DNA of 45,041 bases from Phycisphaerae bacterium. GTDB taxonomy: Bacteria; Planctomycetota; Phycisphaerae; UBA1845; Fen-1342. Below the pieces are notes generated by a model, which worked only from the letters and a program-made list of their open reading frames with translations, ran no database searches and was not told the origin of the DNA. How positions within the stretch are numbered: the first letter of the stretch is position 1; each line of letters starts with the position of its first letter. This document shows, piece by piece, positions 6,349-24,539 of this stretch. The translations under genes were made by a program, and so were the position numbers. The stretch covers positions 1-45,041 of the forward strand of contig CAXXWX010000020.1 in assembly GCA_963675745.2 (NCBI GenBank), given 5' to 3'.

Positions 6349-6376
6349 TGACGGTCATCTCCGGAGCCCGCCGCAG
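6349..6376 (+). promoter_or_regulatory. Putative ECF promoter TGACGG-N17-CGCAG upstream of the collagen-Kelch lipoprotein
   Basis: Exact match to a motif found five times intergenically, ~80 nt before ATG 6458. Confidence 0.7.
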
Positions 6377-6457
6377 TCTTATGCAAGCGCGTCGGCGAGC
6401 GACGCATGACGGCTTCACGATTGGCTGCCCGTGTGGGCCGGATCAAGGAGATTAAGA

Positions 6458-7888
6458 ATGGAGATGCTAATGACTGGGCGACCGCTGTTTGCACTTGGGG
6501 CGATTCGGCGTGTATCTGTGTCCGGCATCGTGCTGGCTGCGTACATGGGGCTGGTTGGTTGCATATCAGTCGACGAAGCCCCCGTTACGGGTGACGACTC
6601 CAGCATGGCGGCCAAGATCACCACCGGGCCAGCAGGAGAAAAGGGTGAACCGGGCCAACAAGGACCACCCGGCGAGGAGGGCCCACAGGGACCGACGGGC
6701 GAGGACGGACCAATCGGTCTGGCCGGCCCGGCGGGGCCAAAGGGTGATACCGGCCCGCAGGGTCTACCCGGCGTTGCAGGGCCAGAGGGGGCCAAGGGTG
6801 ACACCGGGCCCGAAGGGGTGGCCGGTGCGGCGGGGCCGACCGGACCGCAGGGCGCCGTTGGCCCAGTGGGCCCGGCGGGGGCACCTGGTGAGCCGGGGGA
6901 GGACGCTACCGTCCCACCAGGTACACTGATTATGTCGCTCTCGCCGGAGCCGCCGGACGGCTATGCAGCGACGGGCCTGCTCGTTGAAAGCGATGACTAC
7001 TGGACACAGCGCCCGGCGATGCCGACCGTACGCTGGGACCCGGCTGTGACCGCGGTTGGCGGAACCGTCTATGCCATCGGCGGCGGAAACTGGCTGTCAG
7101 GTGCCCTGCGGCACGTTGAGGCCTTCGATTCGGCAACCGGCGTCTGGTCGACGCTCGCTGCCATGCCAACCGGACGGGCTGAGTTCGGTGTCGCGGAACT
7201 GGATGGAAAGATCATCGCAGTCGGCGGCCTGCGCCCGTTTGACGAGATCCTCGATACCGCCGAGCGGTACGATCCGAGCACGGACGCATGGACCGATCTA
7301 GCGCCGCTCACGGTGGCACGTTGTGGCCTGGGTGCAGCGAGCATGGACGGACTGGTCTACGCAGTCGGCGGCCTGGATTGGATGGGTTGGACGGTCGATA
7401 CCTTGGAGGCGTATGACCCGGCGCTGAACCGCTGGGAGCCTAAGGCACCTATGCCGACGCCGCGCATGGGGTTGGTGCTGGTTCCGCTGAACGGCCGGCT
7501 CTACGCCATTGGCGGCTACGATCTGGACAGCGGCTTATGGGCCTGCGACGTCGTCGAGGCGTATAACCCGGTCAACAACACGTGGTCGTTGCGGAGCCCG
7601 TTGCCGATCCCGCTGGCGGACTCCGGTGCGGCGGTCGTGGACGGCAAGATCTACGTGTTTGGCGGCGACGATGGAGACTCGATTAGAGGTGAGGTCTTCA
7701 TCTATGACCCCATCGCGGATGAGTGGGCGGAAGGCGAGCCGATGTTGACGCCTCGGGTGGGACTCGGTGCCACCGCCGTCGGCACGCGGATTTTCGCGAT
7801 CGGCGGGGCAGACAGCTTCGCAGAACCGGTTGACACTGTTGAGGAATACGACCCGGCACTGAGTTTCCATGTGTTCATAAAGGAGTAA
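6458..7888 (+). CDS. Lipoprotein with a collagen-like stalk (31 G-X-Y triplets) and a 6-bladed Kelch beta-propeller
   Basis: RBS AAGGAG 7 nt before ATG 6458, lipobox LVGC, uninterrupted GXY run, six Kelch repeats (xYAIGG...VEAYDP...W). Confidence 0.9.
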
Positions 7889-8041
7889 GGCGCCTGGCCG
7901 TGCCAAGCAACGACCGCCCCCCGAGTCAGCCGTTGGCGTGCGGAGGTTAGATACCCTGCCGAACACCGCCACCCGCCCAAGCTGGATTGGGCGGTCGGGC
8001 AAGCCCCAAACAGAACGACCACGGAGGCTAACCACGCATTA

Positions 8042-8080
8042 AGCGGAGCGGAGCCGGCTCCAACCCGGCTTCGCTCTGCT
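8042..8080 (+). terminator. 16-bp stem hairpin between convergent genes (possible terminator or processing structure)
   Basis: AGCGGAGCGGAGCCGG-7 nt-CCGGCTTCGCTCTGCT pairs fully, with two G-U pairs, on the + strand. No U-tract. Confidence 0.45.
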
Positions 8081-8110
8081 CGTGCATGCGCGGGCGGCGG
8101 GCTTGCCGCT

Positions 8111-8191
8111 AGAGCGGTTTCACTATTGGTTGGGTGCCACTGGCGGCTTGTCCGCCAGTGGCACCCATCGGAGCGTTAATGAAAGCGCTCT
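8111..8191. repeat. REP/MITE-like palindromic element
   Basis: Outer inverted repeat AGAGCGGTTTCA/TGAAAGCGCTCT (1 mismatch) encloses the perfect 16-bp stem TGGGTGCCACTGGCGG-CTTGT-CCGCCAGTGGCACCCA. Confidence 0.7.
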
Positions 8192-8213: not shown

Positions 8214-11200
8214 TCACGGCACTTCCGGTTGCGTTGTTGGCTGAGTGATGGGGCGAGTTGCCGGTTTGGTCGTTGACTGAGTGGTGGCCCCCCAAGCTTC
8301 GAGCTTCGTTTGCCACTCGGCAGCCTGCTCAGGCTTGTTGCAGGATTCGTAGAGCCCCACGATACGCTGGAGCGCCTCGCGCTTGCGAATGTCCAGCGCC
8401 AGTGGATTGTCGCGCATGCCAGCGTAGCCCGCCAGCAACAGCGGCTCGGCTTCTGCGAACTTGCTTTGTCCCGCTAACGCGCCCCCCAACAAACTCCTTG
8501 CGTTCGCGAGCAGCCAATGGTCGACGGGGAATTCCTTCTCACGAATCGCCAGGCACTCGCGCAGCGCCAGCTCGGCTTCCTCGTACTTTCCCTGCTGAAC
8601 CAGACATGTACTGAGCAGGGCGAGGTCGCCAGCGATGTCGATGTGGTCCTTCGGAAGCAATCTCCGGTGGATATCGAGAAGCTGCTTGCTCAACGCCTCG
8701 CCCGCGGTGTAATCCCCCTTGTTTACTAAGCACGCCGCCAGGTTGCTCATTGACGCCAGTGTCAACGGGTCTTCATCGCCGAGCAGTTCTTTCCGCGTAA
8801 CCAGTGCTTGACGGAAGAGCTGTTCAGCTTCTTTTGCCTTGCCTTCGGCGCTGAGCACCCAGGCGAGGGCATCCTGGCTGGCGGCCACGTCTTTGTGCTT
8901 ATCGCCCAGCAGCAGTCGACGGATCGTCAGGGCTTCCCGTAACAGCGGCTCGGCTTCGGCACGTCTTCCCTGGTTACGTAGCAGCCAGCCCAGATTAGAC
9001 AGATCAATTGCCACGGAAAGGTGCTCATCACCATGGAGCTTACGGTCCATTGCCAATGCTTCGAGGTACAGTGGCTCGGCTTCGGCAGGCTTTCCGTCTG
9101 TGTTCAATAGGACGGCGAAGTTATTCAGATGCACGGCTAGATCACGGTGTCCATTCGGGTGCGCGTTTCGCAGAGCCACAAGGGCCTCTCGATAAAGCGG
9201 CTTGGCCTCAGCTCGTTTGCCCTGAGCGCCAAGCACCGACGCGAGGCTGCGCATCGCCGCCACCGTGTCGGGGTGTTGGGTGCCAAGCACACGACGACGC
9301 CCGGCTAGTACGTCGCGGTAGCACCCTTCTGCTACGGCCAAGTCACCTTGGGCATTGCGCAGCCAAGCCACATATGTCAAGGCACTGAGGGTGGCTGGGT
9401 GCGCGTCACCCAGGGCGCGCCTGTAGGTTTCCAGGGCCGTAACAAACAATGGCTCGGCATCCGAGTGCCGCCCCTGCCGCATGTATATCGCGCCGAGATC
9501 GAGCATCGTGCTTGCTGTGCCAATGTGTTCGTCGCCCAGATTGCGACGGCAAACCTCCAACGCTGCTCTCGCGAGCGGTTCGGCAGCGTCGTAGCGCGCT
9601 TGTTGTGTGTACAGCCGGACCAGATTGCCCATTGAAGCCAGCGTCTTCGGGTGCTCATCGCCCAGCAAGCGACGCAACGACTCGTACGACATGAGCTGAA
9701 GTGGTTCGGCTTCCTCATAGCGCCCTTGGTCCTGGTAGAGTCGTGCCAGCATATTCATGACGACGAGCGTTTGTTGATGCTCCTCGCCGAGGACCTTGCG
9801 GTTCAACGCCAGCGCCTCGCGTAGCAAGGGCTCTGCCTCGGCATAGCGGCCTTGTTCCTGATACACGCAGCCCAGGTTCGAGATAAGGACCCGCGTGTGT
9901 GGATGTTCGTCGGTAAGGGTCCTTCGGCTGGCCTCAAGCGCCGGAAGGAGCAGGGTCTCTGCCTCATCATAGCGGCCCTGATCGCGGTAGAGTGTCGCCA
10001 GCGAGCCTGTCGCACTGAGTGTGCGCGGGTGCTCTTTGCCGAAGATCTTGTGATTAGACGCCAGCGCCTCACGCAGCAAGGGCTCCGCCGCAGCCGGTTT
10101 GCCCTGCGTCTGAAGCAAAGCGCCCATGTTACTTACCGAGGTGATTGTCACCGGGTGCTCGTCACCAAGGACGCGGCGGCTGGACTCGAGCGCTTCGCGG
10201 AAGTACTGCTCAGCCTGTGTCAGCTTGCCCTGTGCTTGGAGCAATGAACCCATGTTGTTGATCGAGGCCAGCGTGTCGCTGTGCTCGTCACCCAGGACAC
10301 GGCGTCTGGAATCTAGCGCTTCACTTAAGAGCGCTTCTGCTTTGGCCCACTTCCCCTGTGATTGGAGCAGGACGCCCAAGTTGCTGATCGACTTCAGTGT
10401 GTCCCGGTGGTCATCACCGAGCAGGCGCCGCCTGGATTCTGCCGCCTCACGTGAATAGACCTCAGCCTCAGTCAGTCTCCCCTTGGTATGCATCAGTGCC
10501 CCCAAGCTGCTGATGGAGTCCAGCGTGTCCGGGTGGTCGCCACCCAAGACGCTGCGGCGGCGTTCCAGCGCCTCGCGATAAAGCGCCTCGGCCTGCTCCG
10601 GCTTGCCCTGCCAATAGAGCAGATCGCCCATGTCAGCAATCGAACTCAGCGTGTCTGGGTGATCGTTTCCCAGAACGCGCCGTCGCGATGTGAGCGCCTC
10701 CTGGAGGTACGGTTCTGCGTCGGCTAATTCGCCCTGGCTACTGAGCACGCGCCCCATCGTGCTGATCGCCGTCAGCGTGCCAGGGTGCGCGGCGCCCAGT
10801 GCCGTGCGCCATTCCTCCAGGGCATCCATAAGCAGTGACTCAGCCTCGGCGTAGTGCCCTTGGGTCCATGACACCATGGCCAGGACGGTCTGGGTTCTCA
10901 ACGTCGCGATGTGCTCGTCGCCCAGAACACGCTGCATAGACTCGAGCGTGTCAGTCAGAATGGCTCCGGCCTGGTCGAGTTGTTGCTGAGAGTACCTGAG
11001 TGCCCCTAGGGCGTACATCGATGCCAACGTGTCCGGGTGCTCATTGCCCAGGAGACGCCGCCGCGCATCAAGCACCTTGACGCACAACAGCTCGGCGTCG
11101 TCATAGCGACACTGGCTGCTGCGTAGGTCTGCCAGGCAAGCGAGCGAGTCGAGCGTGTCCTGATGCTCATCTCCCAGCAATTTCTGCCGGCATTCCAATG

Positions 11201-14200
11201 CAGCCAGCACGAGCGTCTCGGCCTCAGCGAATCGGGCCTGCTGCCCAAGCGCCCACGCGAGCTGATTGGCAACGTGTAGCGTGTGCGGATGTTGCTCGCC
11301 AAGGACCCGGCGCCGGCCCTCCAGTGCTTGTCGGTAATATGACTCCGCCACCGGGAAATCCCCCTGGTCCCCGCGCAACCATGCAACGTCGGCCAGCGCG
11401 CCGAGTGTCTTGGGGTGTTCGTCGCCGAGCTTGCGCTGGCAAATCTCAAGTGCCTCTTCGAACAGTGGTTGCGCCAGTTCATGGCGACCACGGTACATGA
11501 GCACTTCTCCCAACCAGCGCAAACTCACTGCGTACTCGGGATGCTGCTCGCCGAGCATCTCGCGGTTGAGCGCCAGCGCCTCCCGGCACAGGCGCTCGGC
11601 AGCGTCATAATTGCCAGTCTCCCGGAGCAGCAGCGCGAGACTCTGTAAGCTGCGCACCGTGTCCGCGTGCGCGTCGCCCAGCGCCTGGCGTCTGATCGCC
11701 AGTGATTCGCGATAGAGCGGCTCGGCGGCCGCAAAATCGCCCGTATCCCGCAGCAGATCCGCCAGGTTGCACATGATCATCCCGACGGTGGGGTGCGCGT
11801 CACCCAGTATGCGGCGATCGATTGCGAGCGCCTCACGGTACAGTGGCTCCGCAGCGTCGTATTCGTGTTGGTCATGAAGGAACACTGCCAGGCTGTTCAT
11901 ACTCGACACCGTCGTCGGGTGCTCGTCACCGAGCGATGTGCGACGCATCTCCAGCGCCTTGCGATATAACGGCTTAGCGGCAACATAGTCACCTTGATCG
12001 TGCACTAAGGCAGCAAGCGCTGCCATGCTGTCGGCGACGCTTGGATGTGCATCACCGAGCCCTTTTCGGCAGATCGTCAGGGCCTCGCGGTACAGCGTGT
12101 CAGCAGTCTCGTAATCACCCTTGTCTTGCGCCACTGCGGCCAGATTGTGCAAGCTCGTCGCAAGAGCGGGATGATCGCCGGGCAATGCGTCGCGGCGGAT
12201 GGCCAGCGCTTCGCGATACAGTGGTTCGGCGCCACCGATGTCGTTCTGGTCGTGTAGAATCACGGCCAGATTGTTCAGACTCGAGGCCACGCTCGGATGC
12301 TTGTCACCCAGCAGACTACGCCTGATCGCGAGCGCCTCACGACAGAGCTGCTCGGCTTCGACGTACTCGCGTTTGCTGCACAGCAGCATCGCAAGGCTGT
12401 CCAGGGCTTGTGCGACATCTAGGTGCTGGCTCCCCAGCGTGTTGCGATACGCTGGCAGAGCCTCGCGGTACAGACGCTCGGCCTCATCGTAATCGGCCAG
12501 AGCGTGCAGCAGGTTCGCCAGGTTGTGCAGGCTCTCGGCGACAGCCGGATGGTCACCGTCTGCCAATGTGCGCCGCATGGCCAGCGCCTCGCGGTACAAG
12601 CGCTCGGCCTCATCGTACTCTGCTTCTGTCAGCAGCAGATTCGCGAGGTTGTTTATACTCTCGGCGAGGTCCAGATGCTCGTCACCCAACAGCGTGCGGC
12701 GCAGCGCCAGCGCCTCGCGGTACAGCGGCTCGGCCTTGCTGTAGCGGCCCTGGGCTTGGTATAGCGCAGCCAGGTCGTTCATCGACTTTGGCGTGTTGGG
12801 ATGTGTGTTGCCTAAGCAATCCTGCCAAAGCCCGAGGGCCACCTTGAGGTGCGGTTCGGCAAGGCTATATTCCCCGATCGCCCGGTACGTGTTGCCGATC
12901 GTGCCGCGGATCGACGCTTCGACCTCCGGTTGATCACTCAGCTCAGTCTCGATGCGCTCGGAGGCCCGGTCGAGGATCATGCGCATGAGCGCTTTGTCAA
13001 GCGTACCCGCAACTTCGGGGTCGACCCCCGCGAGCATCTCCTTTGTGAAGCGGACAACTGCGTCCGACTCGGCGGCGGCGATTCTCGCACGCTCGGCTTC
13101 ATCTTCGGCCCGGACGCGCTGACGGACGGCCTGTCGCCAGAAGGCCGAGGACAACACAAACCCGACTGCGATGAGCAAGGTAAACAAGACGCCGATCGTG
13201 GCTGGTACGCGATAGCGGTGAAGCTGCTTGCGCAGCACGTACATGGCACTGTCGCGCTTGGCCTCGATCGGCTCGCCGTCCAGGTAGTGACCGATGTCGC
13301 GGGCCAGCTCACCGGCGGTCTGATAGCGCCGCTCACGCTCCTTGCTGAGGCACTTCAGGACGATTGTCTCAACTTCGTCGTTGACCTGCCGGCGGATGGT
13401 GCTCGGGCGGGTTGGCGAGGCGTTTATGATCCGGTCCAACACGTCGCGCATGTTCCCGGCGACCTCGTAGGGGAATCTACCGGTGAGCATTTGGTACAGC
13501 ATTACACCCAGCGAGTACACGTCGGTGCGGATATCGATCTTGGCGGGAATCGCCTCGGCCTGCTCGGGCGAGGCCCATGGCAGACTACCCATGAACTGGC
13601 CGGTCAGCGTCATCATCTCCGGCCGCGAGCCGTCAGTGACCTGCCCCACCGTGATCTTGGCCAAGCCGAAGTCCAGGATGTGCGGCATGCCCTCAGCATC
13701 GATGCGGATGTTGCCAGGCTTTAGATCGCGGTGGATCACGCCATGGAGGTGCGCCGCGTTCACGGCCTCGCAAATGCGGATGAAAAGGCGCAGAGTGTCC
13801 TCTACGGAGTGCGCACTGCCGCTCATCCAGGTGCTGAGCGACATGCCGGCGATGTAGTCCATCACGAAGTAGAAGCTGCCACTGACGCTGCCGCTGTCGT
13901 GGATCGTGACAATGCTGGGGTGATTGAGCTGTCCGAGGACTTCGATTTCGCGTTCGAAGCGCGCCGTGTCGCGCTGACCGGCGAACGGCCCCTCCTTCAT
14001 GACTTTGATGGCGACCTTGCGTCGCGTGGATTTCTGGATTGCTTGATAGACGACTCCCTGCCCACCACGGTGCAGTTCGCGCACGATCTCGTAGCCGGGG
14101 ATTGAGTCAGCTTGCACGGGGGACGGCGGCTCCATCGTGTCGCCAACCTCGCTCGTCTCCCGATCCGCAGCCAACGTCATCGCGTCCTCCATGTAGTGCT

Positions 14201-14381
14201 CGACGTCGGCAGCGCTCGGTGTCTTGGCTTCCTGCTCAGCCCGAGCGAGCATTTCCTCAACGTTCCGCAACAATTCGCTGTCACCGGCGCAGGCTTCACG
14301 CAGAAACACAATCCGGTGCGCGGCGGGCTGCTCCAACGCCGCCCGGTAGAGCTGATAGATCTTTACGCGGTCCTCAGCCAT
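8214..14381 (-). CDS. Hanks-type Ser/Thr protein kinase with a TM helix and a very long array (~35) of 42-aa TPR repeats
   Basis: Motifs RGGQGVVY, VAIK, HRDLKPGN, DFG, SPE. TM IGVLFTLLIAVGFVLSSAFW. LGxxHPxT...AEPLYREAL repeats. Start set at MAEDRV (14381) by homology to 23904. Confidence 0.95.
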   Translation of the reverse strand: MAEDRVKIYQLYRAALEQPAAHRIVFLREACAGDSELLRNVEEMLARAEQEAKTPSAADVEHYMEDAMTLAADRETSEVGDTMEPPSPVQADSIPGYEIVRELHRGGQGVVYQAIQKSTRRKVAIKVMKEGPFAGQRDTARFEREIEVLGQLNHPSIVTIHDSGSVSGSFYFVMDYIAGMSLSTWMSGSAHSVEDTLRLFIRICEAVNAAHLHGVIHRDLKPGNIRIDAEGMPHILDFGLAKITVGQVTDGSRPEMMTLTGQFMGSLPWASPEQAEAIPAKIDIRTDVYSLGVMLYQMLTGRFPYEVAGNMRDVLDRIINASPTRPSTIRRQVNDEVETIVLKCLSKERERRYQTAGELARDIGHYLDGEPIEAKRDSAMYVLRKQLHRYRVPATIGVLFTLLIAVGFVLSSAFWRQAVRQRVRAEDEAERARIAAAESDAVVRFTKEMLAGVDPEVAGTLDKALMRMILDRASERIETELSDQPEVEASIRGTIGNTYRAIGEYSLAEPHLKVALGLWQDCLGNTHPNTPKSMNDLAALYQAQGRYSKAEPLYREALALRRTLLGDEHLDLAESINNLANLLLTEAEYDEAERLYREALAMRRTLADGDHPAVAESLHNLANLLHALADYDEAERLYREALPAYRNTLGSQHLDVAQALDSLAMLLCSKREYVEAEQLCREALAIRRSLLGDKHPSVASSLNNLAVILHDQNDIGGAEPLYREALAIRRDALPGDHPALATSLHNLAAVAQDKGDYETADTLYREALTICRKGLGDAHPSVADSMAALAALVHDQGDYVAAKPLYRKALEMRRTSLGDEHPTTVSSMNSLAVFLHDQHEYDAAEPLYREALAIDRRILGDAHPTVGMIMCNLADLLRDTGDFAAAEPLYRESLAIRRQALGDAHADTVRSLQSLALLLRETGNYDAAERLCREALALNREMLGEQHPEYAVSLRWLGEVLMYRGRHELAQPLFEEALEICQRKLGDEHPKTLGALADVAWLRGDQGDFPVAESYYRQALEGRRRVLGEQHPHTLHVANQLAWALGQQARFAEAETLVLAALECRQKLLGDEHQDTLDSLACLADLRSSQCRYDDAELLCVKVLDARRRLLGNEHPDTLASMYALGALRYSQQQLDQAGAILTDTLESMQRVLGDEHIATLRTQTVLAMVSWTQGHYAEAESLLMDALEEWRTALGAAHPGTLTAISTMGRVLSSQGELADAEPYLQEALTSRRRVLGNDHPDTLSSIADMGDLLYWQGKPEQAEALYREALERRRSVLGGDHPDTLDSISSLGALMHTKGRLTEAEVYSREAAESRRRLLGDDHRDTLKSISNLGVLLQSQGKWAKAEALLSEALDSRRRVLGDEHSDTLASINNMGSLLQAQGKLTQAEQYFREALESSRRVLGDEHPVTITSVSNMGALLQTQGKPAAAEPLLREALASNHKIFGKEHPRTLSATGSLATLYRDQGRYDEAETLLLPALEASRRTLTDEHPHTRVLISNLGCVYQEQGRYAEAEPLLREALALNRKVLGEEHQQTLVVMNMLARLYQDQGRYEEAEPLQLMSYESLRRLLGDEHPKTLASMGNLVRLYTQQARYDAAEPLARAALEVCRRNLGDEHIGTASTMLDLGAIYMRQGRHSDAEPLFVTALETYRRALGDAHPATLSALTYVAWLRNAQGDLAVAEGCYRDVLAGRRRVLGTQHPDTVAAMRSLASVLGAQGKRAEAKPLYREALVALRNAHPNGHRDLAVHLNNFAVLLNTDGKPAEAEPLYLEALAMDRKLHGDEHLSVAIDLSNLGWLLRNQGRRAEAEPLLREALTIRRLLLGDKHKDVAASQDALAWVLSAEGKAKEAEQLFRQALVTRKELLGDEDPLTLASMSNLAACLVNKGDYTAGEALSKQLLDIHRRLLPKDHIDIAGDLALLSTCLVQQGKYEEAELALRECLAIREKEFPVDHWLLANARSLLGGALAGQSKFAEAEPLLLAGYAGMRDNPLALDIRKREALQRIVGLYESCNKPEQAAEWQTKLEAWGATTQSTTKPATRPITQPTTQPEVP

Positions 14382-14463
14382 GCTCAATCCTCTTCGGCGA
14401 GGAACTGCCTCGGCCAATCCGGGCTTGGCGAGCACACCAGCAAGCGCAGTGTGAGCACACCCT
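14374..14463 (-). pseudogene. Scar of a deleted ECF sigma gene (RBS plus the last ~15-20 codons)
   Basis: Retains the AGGGTGTG RBS (14456-14463), as at 24475-24482. Decayed DWPRQFLA/RIEHG* matches NWLRQCLVRRIEDG* of the ECF at 23897-24472, with the same ATGGCTGA overlap onto the kinase start. Confidence 0.7.
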
Positions 14464-14486: not shown

Positions 14487-14514
14487 TGACGGGGCACCAA
14501 GGAGATTCTCGCAG
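14487..14514 (+). promoter_or_regulatory. Putative ECF promoter TGACGG-N17-CGCAG
   Basis: Exact motif 50 nt before ATG 14565. The context CGTTTCTGACGG...GATTCTCGCA is shared with 24506-24538. Confidence 0.7.
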
Positions 14515-14564
14515 GGTGGTTTGGACGCGGCAAGTGGTCAGGTGGGCCCTGGGAGCTGTAAACG

Positions 14565-14750
14565 ATGCTGGCAAGACTCGTATACAACGCGGTGATGGCC
14601 ATTATCATCGTTCTAATCAGCGCGGTGGCGACGGGTTGCATCCCCAACAAACCCCACAACACTGCAAAACAGCTCCTCTCCGAGCCGGCGTCGATGTTGC
14701 GCTATGACGTGGCGCCCGAAGTCGCCAAGATCGAACTGCCCGGCGCATAG
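14565..14750 (+). CDS. Small (61 aa) putative lipoprotein, possibly truncated
   Basis: GGAG RBS, hydrophobic stretch AIIIVLISAVATGC ending in a lipobox-like Cys, located downstream of the promoter motif. Confidence 0.5.
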   Translation: MLARLVYNAVMAIIIVLISAVATGCIPNKPHNTAKQLLSEPASMLRYDVAPEVAKIELPGA

Positions 14751-14895: not shown

Positions 14896-16716
14896 CTAGT
14901 CGATCTGGGCAGTCAGCTCGAAGGGCTCCGTCACAGCCTTGCTACCGACCCTGACAACCAGGTCTCCGGCGACCACATACCGCCCCGCGCTGACGCGCGG
15001 ATACGTGGCGTCGGCCTCCACGTTGATGTAGCCCGTGCTGGCACCCGTTCCGAGGCCGGCGAAGGCCGCCTTGAGCCCCGCGGCGTCGGAGCTGGGTGTG
15101 AAGGTGCCGCCGGTCTCAGATGCGACACGCATCAGCTCGCTGAAGTCGGGATCGGTGCCGAGCCCGACCGCGAGGATGCGGCTACCCTGGGAAAGCGCGT
15201 GCGAAATCAACTCGTCCGTTCCCCGTGAGCCGCCATCATCCTCGCCGTCGGTCAGCAGAACCACGTAGCCGCGTCCGGCCGACGAGGTTGCCAGTCGATC
15301 CAGTGCATCCTCGGCCGCGCGCCAAAGCCCGGTCGCACCGCCGTCGTCAAAGGCCTGAATCGCGGCGCGCAGCGCGGTGCGGCTGTCAGTGAAGTCCTGC
15401 AGCAACCTGGGGCTGCTGTCAAATTCGGTGATCGCCACTTCGTCACCCGCGACCACCTGGTCGATGAACGCGTTGCCGCCCGCGCGCCGGCCTGAACTGT
15501 CGGCGTCATTGCCGCCTCCCCACCATCCAGGCCCCATGCTGCCGCTTGTGTCAAACACAAGCACGGCCGTCAGCCGTCCACCCGCCGAAGCCCCCACCAC
15601 GGAGATGCCAGTCGGTACGGCGTCGGCGCTGATGTCCGCACCGCCACTGCTGGGCCGCAGCGTGACGTTACGGAAGGTGAAGTTGGCCGTAGTGAGGCCG
15701 GAACTGACCAGGTCGCCATCATCATCGCGGACCGTGACACTGAGCGTGAGCTTCCCACCGGTCTCGTCAAGATCGGTCACTCCGCCAATGAGGACGGCGT
15801 CATGGAATCCTCCGGTGTCGTCCCCACCGGAGACCCCGAGGAACTCGAATCGGGTCGTCGTGCCGATGACGCGCGCATACAGATCGCGCTCACCCAGGCT
15901 GCCGCAGGTGCGCTCTGCAACCAGAGCCCCATCGTTGATGACTATGGACAGTTCGGCGCCGTCGCGTTCGAATTCGACCTTGTTCATACCGTCGCAGAGC
16001 TCGACCGTACCCAGGTGCTCGTCGTCGAAGGCGGTACCGTCGAGGTCAACCCAGTATTGGCCACCCTCGTCGTGGCTGATGAAGAGCACCACGCTCTTGT
16101 CGTCGAGATAGAACGCCAACGAGTTAGCCCACTTCCCATCCGGCGTGTCAATGGCGAGCACCTCGAAATAGGCTGTCGCTGTTGCATCGCCAGGCAGAGG
16201 CGCACTCAGCGTCGAGTTTCGATAGTGCCCGCTCGGCGCCGTCAGGTCGAAGGCACCGCTCCCGAAGCTGCGGCTCGGACACTCGCCGGTCTCCACCGTC
16301 GGATCCGAGTCACCGCCGCTGTCGTCGGCGTCGTCAGCGTTGTCATCCTCGTCAGATGAGGCGTCCGAGTCGTCAGCGCTTTCATCGCCATCCGACCCAG
16401 CGGCGATGTCATCCGCACCCGCCTCGTCTTTACCGGCATCACCGTCGTCGGGCGCTGTGTGGGTGGCGCTGCCGGAATCCCCATCATCGCCCGGGTTGCT
16501 GCTGATGTCTGCTCCGTCAGTGGCCGCGACATTGTTCGATGACTGTTCCGTTTGTGACTGTGTGTCGAATTGCTGGCTGAACTGGACGTCGTTGGTAACC
16601 GTCTGGACTGGCGTAACGGCTGGGCACCCGGCGATGGCCAGAATAGCGCTGAGGAGACCAGGAACCAGGATGAGCGTACGGCCCGACTGACGCAGGTTTC
16701 GGTGATATCGTGACAT
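14896..16716 (-). CDS. Lipoprotein with an acidic low-complexity linker, a beta-rich domain and a C-terminal von Willebrand A domain
   Basis: Lipobox IAGC, D/S/G-rich linker, MIDAS motifs FDTSGSM...GATGLW...LLTDG. Confidence 0.88.
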   Translation of the reverse strand: MSRYHRNLRQSGRTLILVPGLLSAILAIAGCPAVTPVQTVTNDVQFSQQFDTQSQTEQSSNNVAATDGADISSNPGDDGDSGSATHTAPDDGDAGKDEAGADDIAAGSDGDESADDSDASSDEDDNADDADDSGGDSDPTVETGECPSRSFGSGAFDLTAPSGHYRNSTLSAPLPGDATATAYFEVLAIDTPDGKWANSLAFYLDDKSVVLFISHDEGGQYWVDLDGTAFDDEHLGTVELCDGMNKVEFERDGAELSIVINDGALVAERTCGSLGERDLYARVIGTTTRFEFLGVSGGDDTGGFHDAVLIGGVTDLDETGGKLTLSVTVRDDDGDLVSSGLTTANFTFRNVTLRPSSGGADISADAVPTGISVVGASAGGRLTAVLVFDTSGSMGPGWWGGGNDADSSGRRAGGNAFIDQVVAGDEVAITEFDSSPRLLQDFTDSRTALRAAIQAFDDGGATGLWRAAEDALDRLATSSAGRGYVVLLTDGEDDGGSRGTDELISHALSQGSRILAVGLGTDPDFSELMRVASETGGTFTPSSDAAGLKAAFAGLGTGASTGYINVEADATYPRVSAGRYVVAGDLVVRVGSKAVTEPFELTAQID

Positions 16717-16796: not shown

Positions 16797-16824
16797 TTGC
16801 GTGGCTCGTCGCTGTCGGCCGTCA
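16797..16824 (-). promoter_or_regulatory. Putative ECF promoter TGACGG-N17-CGCAA for the vWA lipoprotein
   Basis: The minus strand reads TTGACGG CCGACAGCGACGAGCCA CGCAA, ~80 nt before ATG 16716. Confidence 0.7.
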
Positions 16825-16902
16825 ATTTTCTTATACTTTTTCTGGGCCGACGGCCGCAGATGAAACAGTCGCGCACGACGGACGAAAAAAACCGCGCGGA
16901 TT

Positions 16903-16930
16903 TGACGGTTGCTCGGCCGATCAACCGCAG
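16903..16930 (+). promoter_or_regulatory. Putative autoregulatory ECF promoter TGACGG-N17-CGCAG
   Basis: Exact motif ending 13 nt before ATG 16944 of the ECF gene. Confidence 0.7.
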
Positions 16931-16943: not shown

Positions 16944-17594
16944 ATGCCGGGTGGCAAAAAACCGCAGGTTGAGTTGACGGCGCTTCTGAGGCGGATGCGC
17001 GGGGGCGACTCCGCGGCCGGACAGGTGTTCGCGCGCGAGGTCTACCACGAATTGCGCCAGATGGCCGCAAACCTGATGTGGCGCGAACGCCGGAATCACA
17101 CATACCAACCGACCGACCTGGTGAACGAAGTGCTCGGCCGCTTTCTGGGTGATGGCACAATCGAGCACGCTGCGGACCGACGGTACTTCTTTGCGTCCGC
17201 GGCGCGAGCCATGCGACGCATTCTGATCGACCACGCACGACAGCGGCAGGCGCAACGGCGTGGGGGTGGCTTGCGGCGCGTACCGCTCGATGAGATGGTC
17301 GAGGTGTTTGAATCGGAGCGAATCGACCTGGTTGCCCTGGACGAGGCACTCGACGCACTGCGCGAGGTGGACCAGCAGGCAGCAGAGTGCATCGCGCTAC
17401 GGCTCTTCTGTGGTCTAACGAATGCGGAGATCGCCGCGCAGCAAGGCGTGTCACTGAGCACCATCGAACGCGAGCACCGCTTCGCCCGCGCTTTTCTGAA
17501 TCGGGCGCTGTCGGGAGGAAGGCAGGATGACACCGCAGCAATGGGAACGCGCCCGAAGACTGTTCTCGACGATCACCCAGAGGCCGACACCTGA
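16944..17594 (+). CDS. ECF sigma-70 factor, Ser/Thr-kinase-associated (TIGR02999-like)
   Basis: Motifs VYHELRQMA, HTYQPTDLVNE, YFFASAARAMRRILIDHAR and region 4 LRLFCGLTNAEIA. Start inferred at MPGGKK. The 68-nt overlap with the kinase may reflect a lost stop at the ATGA junction (17527-17530). Confidence 0.92.
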   Translation: MPGGKKPQVELTALLRRMRGGDSAAGQVFAREVYHELRQMAANLMWRERRNHTYQPTDLVNEVLGRFLGDGTIEHAADRRYFFASAARAMRRILIDHARQRQAQRRGGGLRRVPLDEMVEVFESERIDLVALDEALDALREVDQQAAECIALRLFCGLTNAEIAAQQGVSLSTIEREHRFARAFLNRALSGGRQDDTAAMGTRPKTVLDDHPEADT

Positions 17595-20220
17595 CCGGCA
17601 GCGCCATCTCGTCGCCGCGTGCAGCGATGACCCGGAGGTGCGCCGCGTGGTTGCCGAGCTTCTCGCGGCGGACGACGCGGCGGTCGCCGAAGAGTCGCCC
17701 CTGGATCGCTTCGAGCGCGTCTCGGCCGCAGTGCATCCGGGGTTGAGCGACCCGCTCATTGGCCGCCAGATCGGACATTATCGCGTGCTGCGACTGGTCG
17801 GGCGCGGTGCCATGGGGGTGGTCTATGAGGCGGAGCAACAGCAGCCCAGGCGGCGTGTGGCGCTGAAACTGATGCAGGCGGCGCTGCTGCCGGAGTTCGG
17901 CCTGCGCTTCAAACTCGAGACCGACGCGCTCTCGCGCCTGCAGCATCCGGGTATCGCTCATATCTACGAAGCCGGCGTGGCCAATGTGGACGGGCTCGAA
18001 CGCCCCTTCATCGCGATGGAGTTGATCGCGGGGTGTCCGGTGACCCAATACGTACAGACACACGCACTGGACCGCGGCGCGCGTCTCGACCTGTTTCGGG
18101 CAATCTGCGCCGGCGTGGAGCACGCGCACCAGCGCGGAGTGATTCACCGCGATCTGAAGCCGGCCAACGTGTTGGTCACCGAGGACGCCGTACCCAAGAT
18201 CGTCGACTTCGGCGTGGCGCGTCTGCTGGATGAGTCACAGGACCATTCAACCCTCACCGAACCGGGACAGATACTGGGTACGATCGCGTACATGTCGCCC
18301 GAACAGGCACGTGGGGCGGCCGCCGAGGTGGACACGCGCAGCGACGTATACAGCCTCGGCGTGATGCTGTACGAGTTACTGACGGCAAGATTGCCTTATG
18401 ACCTGGAGGGCCGCCCCGCGGTCGAGGCATTGCGGATGGTTGAGGAGTCGCCGCCCGATTTCCGCAGCGTGCGGCATCTGCTAACTGGCGATCTGGCCAC
18501 GTTGGTGGGCAAGGCGCTCCAGAAGGAGAAGGAACGCCGCTATGCCGGGGCATCGGCGCTGGCCGAAGATGTGCGCCGGCTGCGCGAGCACGAGCCGATT
18601 GTCGCGCGTCCCAGCACCGCGATGTACAAGCTACGCAAATTCGCCCAGCGCCATCGCGGGCTGGTGGGCGGCATCGCGACCGCGGCCATCTCGCTGGCCG
18701 TCGCGAGCATCCTCTCGATCAGCTGGGCGCTCGAGGCCACACAGCAGCGGGACGTGGCCGAGACGGAACGCGATCACGCGCGCATCGCCACCGGGGAGAG
18801 CTACTACCAGAGCGCCGAGCGCCTGTTTGCCCGGGGCGCTTGGGATGCCGCACGCGTGTCGTTTGAGCGCGCGATCGAGATCGGGCACCCAGAGAGCGGC
18901 AAGGCGCGGCTGCGCTCTCTCGAGGCGCTGATTTTTGCCGGCGGCATTGCGCGCGCGGACGCGGAGATCGCCGCACTGCCGAGTTTCACTGATCCCCGGC
19001 TCCAGGGATACGCAACATACCTCAAGGCGCAAAGGGCGATTTACTCAGACCCTCTTGGCGACGATAGCCTCGACTTTCTGGAAAAGGCGCTGACCTACCC
19101 GCTCGAACCGGAGCACGAGGCGCTGGCCCGAGCCTGCTTTGCCGAATCACTGACGGAGATGCAGGAGCACGTGCGTATGGCACTGAGTCATTCGCCGGTC
19201 TACCCCCCCGCCACGAACCTGCATGTGTTCCTGCTCTGTCTGTCGGGTGAACACGCTGCGGCGGCCGCGTTCCTCGAACAGATGAGTCTGCTCACGCCGG
19301 ATGACCCCGGGATCGCGCTCTGGCTGGCGATCGTGCGCGCCTTTCAGGGCGCTGATGGCGATGCCGAGAATATGTTGGCGCAGCTACCTGCCAATGGTCG
19401 CACCGTGGGCCGCTTTGCAACACATTCCATCGCGGCGGCGCGCGACTTTTTCGCTGGCGACGAAGCTGCGGCCACGCCGACGGCACTTGCGCAGCTGCTC
19501 AGCGAATGGGCGGAAGGTATGGCTGCGCTGCGCCGTGTACCGCCGGAATCGACTGACGTTGCTGCGGTAGTCGATAACCTTTTTGCGCCCCCACCGATCA
19601 GACGCTACGCATTGAACATGCTCGGCGGCATCGCCTGGGGGGATGTTGAGCGCCTGACCGCAGCCATCCAGTTTCACCCTGATGGCCTGCTACTCTTGCG
19701 GCGGGCGCAGGTCCGTGTGCAAGCCGAGGATTGGGCGGCCGCAGAGGCCGATCTCGATCAGGCGCTATCGGGGCCGTGGACTCTGGGCGGCAAGTGCCGG
19801 GCCGCGCGCCTGCTGGCATACGTGAAGCTGACGCGGCTGTTTGCGGGCGAGGCGCCAGCTTCGCGAACAGAGCGGGCGCGCTTGCTCAATCGCGCGCTGG
19901 AGTCAATCGAGACTCACGGCTGCGCGTTGGATGATGACCTGCGTTTGCTCGTGGTCGGAGTATTCCTGAAGCTCGGAGATGAGCTGGGTGCCGCCGCATA
20001 CGCATACCCTTGGCGGATCACCCCACCCGCTGATGACAAGCTCGCGCTGAAAGCTGCGAGCCACCTGGCGGCAATGGGTGATGGCAATCACGCGCTTCAG
20101 ATCATCGACGCCATCGCGGCTCGTTCTGGAGAAAGCGATGCGCTCGACAAGCTGCGCCAGCAAATCGCGGCTGACCGGGGAATGCCTGAGACTGCCCCCA
20201 ACCCGCGTGGACCACAGTAG
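17527..20220 (+). CDS. Ser/Thr protein kinase with a TM helix and a helical/TPR-like C-terminus
   Basis: N-terminal MTPQQWERARRLF...ACSDDPEVRRVV leader typical of ECF-coupled kinases. Motifs GRGAMGVVY, HRDLKPAN, DFG, YMSPEQ. Confidence 0.95.
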   Translation: MTPQQWERARRLFSTITQRPTPDRQRHLVAACSDDPEVRRVVAELLAADDAAVAEESPLDRFERVSAAVHPGLSDPLIGRQIGHYRVLRLVGRGAMGVVYEAEQQQPRRRVALKLMQAALLPEFGLRFKLETDALSRLQHPGIAHIYEAGVANVDGLERPFIAMELIAGCPVTQYVQTHALDRGARLDLFRAICAGVEHAHQRGVIHRDLKPANVLVTEDAVPKIVDFGVARLLDESQDHSTLTEPGQILGTIAYMSPEQARGAAAEVDTRSDVYSLGVMLYELLTARLPYDLEGRPAVEALRMVEESPPDFRSVRHLLTGDLATLVGKALQKEKERRYAGASALAEDVRRLREHEPIVARPSTAMYKLRKFAQRHRGLVGGIATAAISLAVASILSISWALEATQQRDVAETERDHARIATGESYYQSAERLFARGAWDAARVSFERAIEIGHPESGKARLRSLEALIFAGGIARADAEIAALPSFTDPRLQGYATYLKAQRAIYSDPLGDDSLDFLEKALTYPLEPEHEALARACFAESLTEMQEHVRMALSHSPVYPPATNLHVFLLCLSGEHAAAAAFLEQMSLLTPDDPGIALWLAIVRAFQGADGDAENMLAQLPANGRTVGRFATHSIAAARDFFAGDEAAATPTALAQLLSEWAEGMAALRRVPPESTDVAAVVDNLFAPPPIRRYALNMLGGIAWGDVERLTAAIQFHPDGLLLLRRAQVRVQAEDWAAAEADLDQALSGPWTLGGKCRAARLLAYVKLTRLFAGEAPASRTERARLLNRALESIETHGCALDDDLRLLVVGVFLKLGDELGAAAYAYPWRITPPADDKLALKAASHLAAMGDGNHALQIIDAIAARSGESDALDKLRQQIAADRGMPETAPNPRGPQ

Positions 20221-20502: not shown

Positions 20503-23500
20503 CTACTCGCCTGGCTGCGAGGTTGGCTGACTGGACGCGTGTTGGGTTGGAGGCCGCGGTGTGGCCTGCCACACCTCCAACTTCGCCCGCCACTCGGCCG
20601 CCTTCGCGCCGTAGCCCTGGTCCGGCTCGGCAGCGTGCCAGGCGTCATAGAGGCCGATCAGCAGATCGACAGCATCGATAGTTTCCTGATGATCAGCACC
20701 AAATCGCGTTCGGCCACGCTCCACGCACTCCAGACACAGTTGTTCCGCCTCTGCGTAACAAGCCGTTTTGCGGAGCAGATAGGCGAGGTTGCCGAGCGCG
20801 TGCATGATGTCAGGGTGGTCGTCGTTCAGCACCCGGCGACGACGCTCCAATACCTCCCGGTAGCACGACTCGGCCTCCGCGTGCTTGCCTTGTCTCATGA
20901 GCAAGCCGCCCATGTTGCTGATTGAGGTCAAGGTATTTGGGTGGTCCTCACCCAGCACCCGGCGCAGACCCTCCAATGCCTCGCGGAGGAGAGGTTCAGC
21001 CTCAGATAGCTTTCCACTTGCTTCGAGCAGGTTTCCCAGGTTGCTTATCGCGGCCAGGGTGCTTTGGTGCTCACTCCCCAGGATGCGGCGTGCTTTCTCG
21101 ACGGTTTCGCGCATGTACGGCTCGGCCTCTGCAAGCTTCCCCTGCGCCTGGAGCAATGCGCTCATGTCGTTCAGCCAGACCAGAAGGTACGGGTGATCAT
21201 CACCGAAAACGCGGCGGCCCGTGGCGAGCGCTTCCTCGAACAGAACTTTCGCCTCTTCCAGCTTGCCCTGCGCCTTCAGCAGGCCACCGAAGTTGCCAGC
21301 CGCAATCAGTGTATTCGCATGGTCGCTACCCAGGTCGCGACGCAAGCCCTCCAGCCCCTCCCGCAGAAGCGGCTCAGCCTCGGGCAGCTTACCCAATCTT
21401 CTGAGCAGGTTACCCAGCCCGGTAATCGAGATCAGCGTTTCGTGGTGGTCGTTCCCGAGCACGCGGCGTTTGGCGTCCAGTGCTTCGCGGTAGTACGCCG
21501 CGGCTTCTGCGAATTCGCCCTGCGACTCGAGTAAGGCACCCATGTTGTGAATAGAGCTCAGCGTCTCAGCGTGGTTGTTACCCAGTATGCGACGCCTCTT
21601 CTCCAGAGCTTCGCGAATACAAACCTCCGCCTCGTTCAGTTTGCCCAGTGACACCAGCACACCACCTACATTGCTCAGCGATCTCAATGTGTCAGGGTGA
21701 TCATCGCCGAGCACGCGACGGCGACGTTCGAGCGACTCGTGCCAGTACTTTTCTGCACCAGCCAAATCGCCTTTTTGGTACAGGAGGCCACCCATGTTGT
21801 TGATTGAGACCAACGTGAGCGGATCGTCATTCCCCAGCTCGCGCCGGCTACCTTCCAGCGCCTCGCGATAGTACAGCTCGGCCTCGTCCAGCTTTCCTTG
21901 GTCGTAGAGCAGACCGCCGACATTGTTCAGTGATCTCAACGTGTCAGAGTGATCATCACCCAGCACGCGGCGGCGACGTTCGAGGATCTCGCGATAGCAC
22001 TGTTCAGATTGGGCCAGCTTGCCTTTTAGTTCGAGCAACCGACCGATATGACCCGCCGTGGCCAGCACGCGGGAGTCATCCTCGCCCAGCAAGCGACGCA
22101 GCCCTGCCAACGCCTCGTTGAGGTGCTCCTCAGATTGATCGAGCTTACCGCGTAGTTGCAGCAGGAATCCCATGTTGCTGATCGCAGACAGTGTGTCCAC
22201 ATGATCGTCGCCGAGTTGCGCGCGGTAGATGCGCAGTGACTCTTCACGCGGCGCGGTGGCACGTTCCAGCAAGCCAAGGTCTTGCAGAGCAGAAGCAATG
22301 GTCTGAAGCAGACGGGCCTTGACGACCGGCTGATCGGCGAATTGCCTCTCAATCGCTGCTATTGCCCGCTTGAAGAGACTCTCATCCAGCAGCTCAAGTG
22401 ATAGACCGGTCAGGTCTGCGCCCGCCAGCAACTCCTCAACCGCGTCAACGCGCTCGGCGAGCGCCGCTTCGTCGAGTCGTGAGCGTTCGCCTGCAGCGCG
22501 CACGCGGTCGATCAGGCCGCGCCGCAAACGTAGTGCCATCATTGGCACATCGACGCCCGAGAGCTGCTCAGCCTGGAATTCTACCACCGCGCTCAGCTCC
22601 GCGGCGCGCCGTTGTTCCGCCACACGGGCCACATCGGCGGCATCGCGGGCCTGCATCGCGTCACTCAGCCGCTGCTCCGCCAGCTTCTCGGCGGCCAGCG
22701 CCCGGCTCAGACCGATGCTGGTGCCGATCACTCCGGCCACCAGCACAACAAACACCGCCGCAATGCCACCGACCAGGGTCTTGTTGCGCCGGGCAAACTT
22801 GCGGAGCTGATAGGTGGCACTCGGTGGTCGGGCGACGATCGGCTCGTCGGCGAGGTAGCGCCGGATGTCGCTGCCCAGGTCGCTGGCTGACTGGTAACGC
22901 CGCTCTTTCTCCTTCGCCAGCGCCTTGGCGACGATCGTCTCCACGTCGCCGCGGAACACGCGGTTGACGTTGCTCAAAGGCGTAGGCTCGTCGTCGCGGA
23001 TGACCCGCACTGCTTCATGGACCATCTTCTGCCGAATGTCATATGGCAGGCGGCCGGCCAGCAGCTCGTAGAGCACAACGCCCAGCGCGTACACGTCGCT
23101 GCGCGTGTCCAGTTCCGTTGGGTCACCGCCGGCCTGCTCCGGCGACATGTAGGGCACGGTGCCGATGAGCTGGCCGATGTCGGTGCGCAGCGTGGTCGCC
23201 TGGATGTCGGCGTCGGTCGCCCGCGCCACGCCGAAGTCGAGGATCTTCGGCTGGCCATCGCTCGTGACGAGGATGTTGCCCGGCTTGAGATCACGGTGGA
23301 TGATGCCCTTCTGGTGAGCGTGATGCACGGCGTCGCAGATGCGGGCGGCGAGATCGAGTCGGGCGCGTGTGCCGAGTTTGTGCGCGCTGACGAACTGCGT
23401 CAGCGATTGACCGTGGACGAGCTCCATCGCGAAGTAGGGCTGCGGGCCGTGGCCGGTATCCGCCGTGCCGGCTTCGTAGATCTGCGCAATTCCCGGGTGC

Positions 23501-23904
23501 TGGAGCCGGCCGAGCACCTCTGCCTCGTGGCGGAAGCGCTCAAGCAGCGTAGGCGTGGTCACGCCGGCGCTGATGACCTTCAGGGCGACCTCGCGTTGCG
23601 GGTGCTCCTGCTGCGCGACGTAGACCACACCCATGCCGCCCTGACCCAGGATGCGGAGAATGCGGTATGAGCCGATTCGCTCAGGCAGCCATTGAGCGGC
23701 CCCCAGCGTGGCTGATTCGGTTGCGGCCGGCTCTGGCGATGGCAACGTGGTTCGGTGCTCAGCCCGGACGAGCATTTCCTCAACGTTCCGCAACAACTCG
23801 CTGTCACCGGCGCAGGCTTCGCACAGAAAGGCCGTCCGTTGCTCGGCGGGCTGCTCCAACGCCGCCCGGTAGAGCTGATAGACTCTTACGCGGTCCTCAG
23901 CCAT
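20503..23904 (-). CDS. Ser/Thr protein kinase with a TM helix and 42-aa TPR repeats
   Basis: Motifs GQGGMGVVY, HRDLKPGN, DFG, YMSPEQ. TM LVGGIAAVFVVLVAGVIGTSIGL. LGDDHxDTL repeats. Start overlaps the ECF stop (ATGGCTGA). Confidence 0.95.
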   Translation of the reverse strand: MAEDRVRVYQLYRAALEQPAEQRTAFLCEACAGDSELLRNVEEMLVRAEHRTTLPSPEPAATESATLGAAQWLPERIGSYRILRILGQGGMGVVYVAQQEHPQREVALKVISAGVTTPTLLERFRHEAEVLGRLQHPGIAQIYEAGTADTGHGPQPYFAMELVHGQSLTQFVSAHKLGTRARLDLAARICDAVHHAHQKGIIHRDLKPGNILVTSDGQPKILDFGVARATDADIQATTLRTDIGQLIGTVPYMSPEQAGGDPTELDTRSDVYALGVVLYELLAGRLPYDIRQKMVHEAVRVIRDDEPTPLSNVNRVFRGDVETIVAKALAKEKERRYQSASDLGSDIRRYLADEPIVARPPSATYQLRKFARRNKTLVGGIAAVFVVLVAGVIGTSIGLSRALAAEKLAEQRLSDAMQARDAADVARVAEQRRAAELSAVVEFQAEQLSGVDVPMMALRLRRGLIDRVRAAGERSRLDEAALAERVDAVEELLAGADLTGLSLELLDESLFKRAIAAIERQFADQPVVKARLLQTIASALQDLGLLERATAPREESLRIYRAQLGDDHVDTLSAISNMGFLLQLRGKLDQSEEHLNEALAGLRRLLGEDDSRVLATAGHIGRLLELKGKLAQSEQCYREILERRRRVLGDDHSDTLRSLNNVGGLLYDQGKLDEAELYYREALEGSRRELGNDDPLTLVSINNMGGLLYQKGDLAGAEKYWHESLERRRRVLGDDHPDTLRSLSNVGGVLVSLGKLNEAEVCIREALEKRRRILGNNHAETLSSIHNMGALLESQGEFAEAAAYYREALDAKRRVLGNDHHETLISITGLGNLLRRLGKLPEAEPLLREGLEGLRRDLGSDHANTLIAAGNFGGLLKAQGKLEEAKVLFEEALATGRRVFGDDHPYLLVWLNDMSALLQAQGKLAEAEPYMRETVEKARRILGSEHQSTLAAISNLGNLLEASGKLSEAEPLLREALEGLRRVLGEDHPNTLTSISNMGGLLMRQGKHAEAESCYREVLERRRRVLNDDHPDIMHALGNLAYLLRKTACYAEAEQLCLECVERGRTRFGADHQETIDAVDLLIGLYDAWHAAEPDQGYGAKAAEWRAKLEVWQATPRPPTQHASSQPTSQPGE

Positions 23905-24472
23905 CCTCAATCCTCCGCACGAGGCATTGCCTCAGCCAGTTCTTGACGTGCGACCAGGCGCGCTCTGCCGTTCGCACCGACATGCCGAGCTGTTCCGCCA
24001 CTTCCTGCATGGAGAGCCCGCCGAAGAAATGCAGCGTCACGATGTCGCTATCGGTGGGGTAGACCTGACTTAGCTCATCGAGCGCTTCTGCCAGATCAAG
24101 GGCACTTACGATCCGGTCGTCAAACTCGATCCGCGCCAGCTCCGGGGGTATCTCAACGCGATGGGGGCGTCCGCGCCGTTTGCGGCCGTGCTCGGCCAGA
24201 ATCTGCCGCATGGCGCGGGCGGCGGCGGCAAAGAGATAGGCCCGGTCGGGTGCTTTCTGCGGCACCTGCCCCTGCGTCAGTCGGAGAAACACCTCGTGCA
24301 CAAGGGCGGTCGGGGCGAGCGTGTGATCGGGCCGCTCATGACGCATTCGCCGCCCGGCCATCGCGCGCAGCTCATCGTACATCAGTGCAATGAGTCTGTC
24401 GTTGGCACCCGTCTCGCCACGGCGAATCGCGGCCAGCAACGTGGTAACATCGCGCCCATCGCCGACTGACAT
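23897..24472 (-). CDS. ECF sigma-70 factor, Ser/Thr-kinase-associated (TIGR02999-like), 191 aa
   Basis: MSVGDGRDVTTLL..., YDELRAMA, HTLAPTALVHE, YLFAAAARAMRQIL, LHFFGGLSMQEVA. RBS GAGGGTG before ATG 24472. Confidence 0.93.
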   Translation of the reverse strand: MSVGDGRDVTTLLAAIRRGETGANDRLIALMYDELRAMAGRRMRHERPDHTLAPTALVHEVFLRLTQGQVPQKAPDRAYLFAAAARAMRQILAEHGRKRRGRPHRVEIPPELARIEFDDRIVSALDLAEALDELSQVYPTDSDIVTLHFFGGLSMQEVAEQLGMSVRTAERAWSHVKNWLRQCLVRRIEDG

Positions 24473-24511
24473 GCCACACCCTCTGAAATCCGCAAGAAAA
24501 CCAAACGTTTC

Positions 24512-24539
24512 TGACGGCCTACCGGGCGGATTCTCGCAA
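24512..24539 (+). promoter_or_regulatory. Putative ECF promoter TGACGG-N17-CGCAA, divergent from the ECF gene
   Basis: Exact motif. The downstream target is unclear (ATGs at 24565 and 24582, no convincing protein). Confidence 0.62.

Follow-up and report, generated by a model that had tools for sequence, protein, structure and literature searches.

Organization of the locus

The window analyzed here is a stretch of 45,041 nucleotides from a Phycisphaerae bacterium (contig CAXXWX010000020.1 of assembly GCA_963675745.2, positions 1 to 45,041). It holds two genes for sigma factors of the extracytoplasmic function (ECF) type, ECF1 and ECF2, three genes for Ser/Thr kinases, K1 to K3, and five copies of a bipartite motif, TGACGG-N17-CGCA, whose likeliest role, on sequence grounds, is that of target promoter for an ECF43-like sigma factor. 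The copies lie ahead of a gene for a protein with collagen and six Kelch repeats (motif 6349..6375, gene 6458..7888, both plus strand), a 61-residue open reading frame (ORF; 14487..14513 and 14565..14750, plus), a gene for a vWA-domain protein (16798..16824 and 14896..16716, minus) and ECF1 itself (16903..16929 and 16944..17594, plus), while the fifth (24512..24538, plus) diverges from ECF2 (23897..24472, minus). The Kelch, vWA and 61-residue proteins carry lipobox-like signals, as read by eye, and are the predicted targets.

A preliminary description, made from the sequence alone, had each copy aimed at a nearby start and a set of lipoproteins as output. Start codons are indeed found 82 nt (Kelch), 51 nt (61-residue ORF), 81 nt (vWA) and 14 nt (ECF1) downstream, and the lipobox-like signals agree with the second point, but the copy at 24512 is without a credible target gene. 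An ATG at 26 nt opens a frame of 7 codons, and another at 43 nt opens a 132-residue ORF (24582..24980, plus) with no Pfam match, homologue or signal sequence, which is doubtful as a gene. Searches at near lengths found no homologue of the 61-residue or the 132-residue ORF.

K2 (17527..20220, plus), which overlaps the 3' end of ECF1, and K3 (20503..23904, minus), which is coupled to ECF2, are each the next gene downstream of their sigma factor gene. Both display the HRDLKP.N and DFG motifs and one hydrophobic segment past the kinase domain, predicted to cross the membrane; tetratricopeptide repeats (TPRs) are strong in K3 (about 12) and weak in K2. K1 (8214..14381, minus) is an orphan kinase with one transmembrane segment and about 30 TPRs, and its N-terminus is 77% identical to that of K3. 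Its leader matches that of ECF2 and, further on, the 3' end of the ECF2 gene (a remnant at 14384..14420, minus, recognized by alignment with the ECF2/K3 junction), which makes K1 a copy of the module whose sigma factor gene has been deleted. The common ancestry of the motif copies at 14487 and 24512, claimed earlier, is confirmed.

ECF1 scored 162 and 174.7 bits, and ECF2 150 and 163.4 bits, on PF07638 and TIGR02999 respectively, in all cases above the cut-offs. The acidic motif of sigma2.2 is replaced in both by a sequence with a threonine, QPTD in ECF1 and APTA in ECF2, and this threonine is retained in 187 of 188 aligned sigma factors. No anti-sigma gene was found among the 27 larger window ORFs scanned with Pfam. 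With their one-transmembrane kinases and their sigma2.2 threonine, ECF1 and ECF2 fit the description of group ECF43 as given in three papers (PMC7826278, PMC13147305, PMC8999054). That group is described from Proteobacteria only (PMC7826278), and the host here is a planctomycete; matches of the TIGR02999 type occurred in 167 of the 201 genomes searched.

An acidic residue beside the presumed phospho-threonine, as in ECF1, is seen in 5 of the 188 aligned sigma factors; it could give a basal activity that seeds a positive loop. Elsewhere in the host assembly, an identical ECF43-like gene is present on two contigs (C15:63451 and C27:6585), each time with a divergent TGACAG-N17-CGTC, and either duplication or redundancy of the bin would account for the pair.

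The five copies compared with chance

A pattern scan for TGACGG-N16..18-CGCA gave five matches in the window, all intergenic and all with a spacer of 17 nt, in agreement with the positions and strands first reported (6349, 14487, 16824 on the minus strand, 16903 and 24512). Shuffled versions of the window, scanned with the same spacers, held 0.84 matches on average and none of 100 reached five. From the rate elsewhere in the genome 0.26 copies are expected per 45 kb, which gives P = 8e-6 for at least five copies and P = 1.6e-4 for at least four, with the motif itself having been defined on the same five sites. The claim of a cluster beyond chance is thus upheld. The A+T content of the 25 nt upstream, a feature not used in defining the motif, places the five window copies first to fourth and joint fifth among the 35 matches in the genome, as expected for real promoters. 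Contigs of run X1 show no difference from the window across the five sites; this run is probably the source sample, and its match is hence not independent support.

Two further sites were noted. A weaker one in the Kelch leader (6407..6433, plus), with the same -35, 17 nt and CGTG, may be due to chance. Another falls within codons 11-19 of ECF1 (16975); considered as a promoter, it was rejected as probably a coding coincidence. Between the vWA and ECF1 motif copies, a lone sigma70-like -10 (16832..16837, plus; 5/6 positions), without a TTG -35, is a possible basal promoter of ECF1.

A predicted sigma70-type promoter interlocked with two of the copies

Opposite the copies at 14487 and 24512 lies a feature that the preliminary description overlooked. 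On the minus strand, at 14533-14505 and 24558-24530, a TTG-led hexamer is followed by 17 nt ending in TGC and by GAGAAT, a pattern that occurs nowhere else in the window. They are predicted to be sigma70-type promoters, one for K1 (14505..14533) and one for ECF2-K3 (24530..24558), and each is interlocked with the ECF-type motif in such a way that its -10 begins opposite the first C of the ECF -10. Both have the 17-nt spacer and the extended TG of sigma70 promoters, and a -10 with A second and T sixth but G instead of T as first base, and a scan with the strict sigma70 consensus did not list them. In leaders of host operons, TTG-N19..21-TAnnnT was counted 120, 259 and 144 times, versus 34-62 away from the peak; as this peak (259) falls at the same 17-nt spacer, the interlocked promoters fit the housekeeping shape of the host.

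We then turned to related loci. The comparison set comprised 186 sigma loci outside the window, of which 178 belong to other genomes of the order and 8 to the host genome. They are the top scorers among more than 1000 matches, and 185 had enough upstream DNA. The form TTG-N20-GAnAAT (hereafter G-form) is present in 33 of these 185 sigma leaders, versus 0-3 at other spacings, 0-2 on the other strand and 28 of 2339 ordinary leaders. It was found in both batches of loci (19/86 and 14/99), and the leaders bearing it come from 25 genera in 3 families; on the tree it changes 15 times. The interlock was first noticed in loci with Ser or Arg at the first helix position considered below, and then counted over all loci. 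A strong -10 of the TAnAAT type is rarer in the interlocked leaders (6/33, versus 77/152). Because the 33 interlocked sites covary at the ECF -35, as described below, the two promoters seem to be maintained together.

In three relatives with the helix R-x-x-x-Y-E-W (L061, L062 and L175) the same interlock is seen with an ECF -10 that starts with T and a housekeeping -10 that starts with A.

Pairing of promoter and helix in related sigma factors

If the motif is read by sigma factors of this family, its -35 should change with the recognition helix of sigma4. The helix class S/A-x-x-E-R was set beforehand from the residues of ECF1 (S-T-I-E-R-E). A divergent TGAnGG-N17-CG is found at 15 of 19 loci of this class and at 7 of 166 others. 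With the class refined to [S/P]-x-x-E-R the counts become 18/22 versus 2/163, and 12/15 in the later loci; this class was adjusted after the S/A counts had been seen and is no clean held-out test, so that the argument rests on the S/A class and on the reversed search below. Its spacer peak lies at 17 (18/22, versus 0-7 at spacers 12-22). Other helices are accompanied by other -35 boxes, R-T-x-D-G by TTGCG and R-T-x-E-R-D by TGGCGG. On a tree built with FastTree without the helix columns, the class changes 12 times and the motif 13 times. Outside the order, one sigma factor of Acidobacteria with helix S-V-V-E-R has the exact window motif.

A second comparison used the 33 sites anchored only on their sigma70-type elements, the -35 being left out of the choice. 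Covariation with the helix residues peaks at the six bases located 17 nt before CG. Where the first helix position is Ser or Ala, the third base is A in 8 of 8 anchored sites, and where it is Arg, A is found in 0 of 20. The motif therefore displays a bipartite form, a fixed spacer, a position upstream of starts and covariation with the sigma4 helix. The predicted promoter appears real and is well supported.

Two other approaches were set aside. The window motif itself, sought in the 29 top TIGR02999 loci, gave no consistent match, the -35 varying with the helix. Unseeded expectation maximization mostly picked up coding bias and merged two motifs into one, control regions scored equally high, and its likelihoods were not used. 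A hydrophobicity heuristic for secreted targets in the relatives gave 20/47 versus 1186/3739 (p = 0.12), although by eye many N-termini resemble signal peptides. Three relatives (L095, L142 and L041) bear a second copy of their own motif between the sigma factor and kinase genes; no such copy exists at the ECF1/K2 or ECF2/K3 junction.

Finally, the search was reversed and started from DNA alone. The combined ECF and sigma70-type pattern was searched in 278 other genomes of the order, with the reversed pattern as a control. It gave 12 matches against 0 for the control, and 11 of the 12 face an ECF43-like gene at 18-81 nt, all 11 with an S/A-x-x-E-R helix. Among the loci not seen before, 8 of 9 face such a sigma factor. 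Of 44 metagenome matches, 4 (3 of them distinct) do so, and the two distinct readable helices fit.

Which sigma factor reads the sites

Several observations weigh against a simple reading of these data. The check for genome-wide enrichment that the preliminary description had proposed gave no excess: the 5.2-Mb genome holds 35 matches of TGACGG-N17-CGCA, versus 17-40 at spacers 10-25, and oriented intergenic matches outside the window are at background (6 versus 1-6, with a rough gene caller that missed ECF1). The signal of the motif is thus its cluster on the window contig, spacer 17 being no commoner than others genome-wide. Related loci are not independent, and the 3 independent pairs on well-supported branches, never contrary, are too few for significance. 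Outside the order, the motif is found at 1 of 4 distinct S/A-x-x-E-R sigma factors, and the interlock is seen in no Acidobacteria locus (15 rows). The S-type combined pattern was found in none of 400 further genomes of the phylum, and 40 of the 44 metagenome matches have no sigma factor nearby, being probably chance. One covariation value outside the hexamer, at position -26, is also high. ECF2, with its Arg, misfits the 24512 site that faces away from it. Lastly, the G-form is also seen ahead of ordinary genes, and in the host no dinucleotide precedes -10 boxes more often than GC, so that the overlap can come about readily and need not have a regulatory role.

It is nevertheless very improbable that the five copies arose by chance, or were left behind by local duplication, and have no promoter function. 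The lack of a genome-wide excess, the common ancestry of two copies and the other duplications on the contig speak for such an origin, but four unrelated spacers, the A+T-rich flanks and a motif that is conserved and covaries in independent genomes speak against it. As to the reader of the sites, the preliminary description held that TIGR02999-type sigma factors, switched on by TPR-sensor kinases, drive the local set of lipoproteins. ECF1 fits the -35; ECF2 (helix R-T-A-E-R-A) misfits its third base, none of the 20 anchored relatives with Arg having the matching A, and Arg is found in none of the 11 sigma factors from the reverse search. The first helix position is Ser in ECF1 and Arg in ECF2, and we therefore predict that ECF1 reads all five sites. 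That ECF2 reads the motif too, so that one promoter set would serve three kinases (K1 and K3 through ECF2, K2 through ECF1), seems to us rather unlikely, although several facts favour it: the 24512 copy sits where the family usually places the target of the adjacent sigma factor, ECF1 and ECF2 belong to one 12-row clade whose anchored sites all read CGCA (4/4, versus 4/43 elsewhere), the N-termini of K1 and K3 are alike, and one Arg-helix relative of 21 has a TGAAGG site.

With intergenic matches outside the window at background, the regulon looks local, but the word "self-contained" used for it earlier claims more than the data show. A sigma factor on another contig (C15:202183) has a helix of the same class, S-T-V-E-R-E, and an interlocked TGACGG-N17-CGCG at its own gene. 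This sigma factor could be the main reader of the window sites in trans, in which case the regulon would not be local. We find this improbable, given that all five sites end in CGCA, the form typical of the ECF1/ECF2 clade, which favours a local reader, and that they cluster within 11 kb of ECF1. Autoregulation, also proposed earlier, is predicted from the copy at 16903 that aims at ECF1. It is atypical nonetheless, as a same-direction, self-activating site is found at 1 of 22 like sigma factors, where it overlaps the start.

Proposed mechanism and meaning of the overlap

Taken as a whole, we think it probable that the motif is the promoter of ECF1, switched by K2, with interlocked two-way promoters at 14487 and 24512. 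Our model starts from what was observed, namely the sites and where they lie, the register that relatives conserve and the covariation of residues with bases; the transcription, the phosphorylation, the assignment of sigma factors to sites and the exclusion are proposed. By analogy with EcfP/PknT and EcfK/PknS, K2 would become active through a ligand acting on its outer domain. K2 would then phosphorylate the sigma2.2 threonine of ECF1, allowing it to bind core polymerase. Transcription by the resulting holoenzyme would cover the three lipoprotein genes and, from 16903, the ECF1-K2 operon itself, a predicted positive loop that is unusual for the family. At 14487 and 24512, the G required by the ECF -10 would weaken the housekeeping promoter, and an optimal spacer and an extended TG would compensate in part, and the same DNA would thus carry weak basal transcription of K1 or ECF2-K3 one way and induced target transcription the other way.

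The two holoenzyme footprints would coincide, the induced one excluding the housekeeping one, so that an active sigma factor would lower the opposite basal transcription. In the usual layout of the family this exclusion would be negative autoregulation; at the window locus it would be cross-repression by ECF1. Such mutual exclusion with negative feedback, of which the sign is our inference, we hold to be a possibility somewhat short of even. A larger proposal, more tentative still, is that ECF43 modules of Phycisphaerae contain a conserved hybrid bidirectional promoter acting as a built-in switch. Housekeeping polymerase would make a low amount of sigma factor and kinase, and the phosphorylated holoenzyme would take over, transcribe the secreted output and shut off its own supply. 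ECF1 would in that case silence K1 and ECF2-K3, and the 24512 copy would be an operator made of a promoter. There is close to an even chance that both promoters are real and that their overlap is mere sequence economy, with no interference or with mutual stimulation. A G-form preceded by GC already spells CGC on the other strand, such that a target promoter could evolve cheaply, and both the G-form in 28 of 2339 ordinary leaders and the frequent GC before -10 boxes provide the raw material. Bidirectional promoters of the sigma70-sigma70 type can stimulate each other (bioRxiv 2020.01.31.928960), and the interlock is missing from 152 of 185 loci. On the other side stand the 18-fold enrichment in sigma leaders and the one exact register kept across families and genera even as the ECF -35 follows the helix. 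Enrichment and register together suggest selection, whichever the sign of the effect.

Neighbouring genes

Homologues of the vWA protein are present in 8 of 71 genomes of the family, and no ECF43-like gene lies within 1.5 kb of any of the 5 best; membership of the regulon is therefore not conserved. The locus is flanked by paralogous genes for secreted beta-helix proteins (932-5935, minus, and 25743-32326, plus), 75-85% identical and with homologous upstream regions. The second shows frameshifts near its start and near 30280 and 31050, where run contigs differ by single bases, and these may be assembly errors or reads of the paralogue. An element of about 140 nt (6150-6293) upstream of the beta-helix gene has further copies at C26:41449, C26:51201 and C24:8362; one copy adjoins genes that by eye resemble transposase and integrase genes, which suggests an island-borne duplication. 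A fourth orphan Ser/Thr kinase with one transmembrane segment and WD40 propellers (32905-37503, plus) has no copy of the motif upstream and a TAnnnT-type -10 of its own.

Relation to known systems and significance

A parallel can be drawn with EcfP-PknT of Vibrio parahaemolyticus and EcfK-PknS of Xanthomonas citri. They share with the present locus the Sigma70_ECF domain, the downstream kinase gene and kinases with one transmembrane segment and outer TPRs (PMC8999054, PMC13147305, PMC8103513). A threonine likewise replaces the acidic sigma2.2 motif in EcfP and EcfK, and the acidic neighbour in QATE of EcfK recalls QPTD of ECF1. The locus differs by its planctomycete host, its local lipoprotein targets and the presence of three kinases and two sigma factors together. 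No promoter sequence for EcfP or EcfK was found in the accessible parts of these reports (PMC8999054, PMC13147305, PMC8103513).

For ECF43, Casas-Pastor et al. describe the same sigma group and predict a promoter with GTC at -35 and CAG at -10, which TGACGG and CGCA do not match (PMC7826278). This published motif is itself a prediction in the same source, and a same-strand search would miss sites that, in our data, are nearly always on the strand opposite to the sigma factor gene. In the residue-base code of Todor et al., -35 bases covary with helix residues (PMC7776599). Residues that align by eye with R171 and S172 of RpoE do so here too, and in our sites, unlike in that code, the third base follows a residue three places before them in the helix. 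These authors started from autoregulatory promoters, and the main text, as far as available, contains no mention of ECF43, kinases or Planctomycetes (PMC7776599).

The bidirectional promoters of Warman et al. also have -10 elements that coincide on opposite strands in a preferred register, but there sigma70 serves both strands (bioRxiv 2020.01.31.928960). Here a housekeeping sigma factor would be paired with a signal-activated alternative one, and one of the two transcripts encodes the sigma factor or kinase. From the geometry, our start sites would be about 20-25 nt apart, within the 7-29 nt between divergent starts that defines bidirectional promoters. In systems of the MerR/SoxR type, regulator and target genes are expressed from overlapping divergent promoters with negative autoregulation, the DNA-bound activator acting as repressor. 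Unlike these, the arrangement proposed here would need no separate repressor, and the two promoters would use different sigma factors. We found no description of the TGACGG/CGCA promoter or of a sigma70/ECF43 interlock in literature of partial coverage, and a prior description is possible. The sigma-kinase system and the general ECF code were already known; the conserved interlock appears to be the new element.

In the parts of the literature available, we found no validated promoter for phosphorylation-activated sigma factors of planctomycetes. Such sigma factors are numerous in these bacteria, and an opposite-strand promoter keyed to helix residues would make their targets predictable from sequence. 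The interlock, a 47-base element, lends itself to in vitro assays or to reporters in E. coli. The interlocked housekeeping promoter is also a possible answer to the question of how a sigma factor without an anti-sigma limits its own response.

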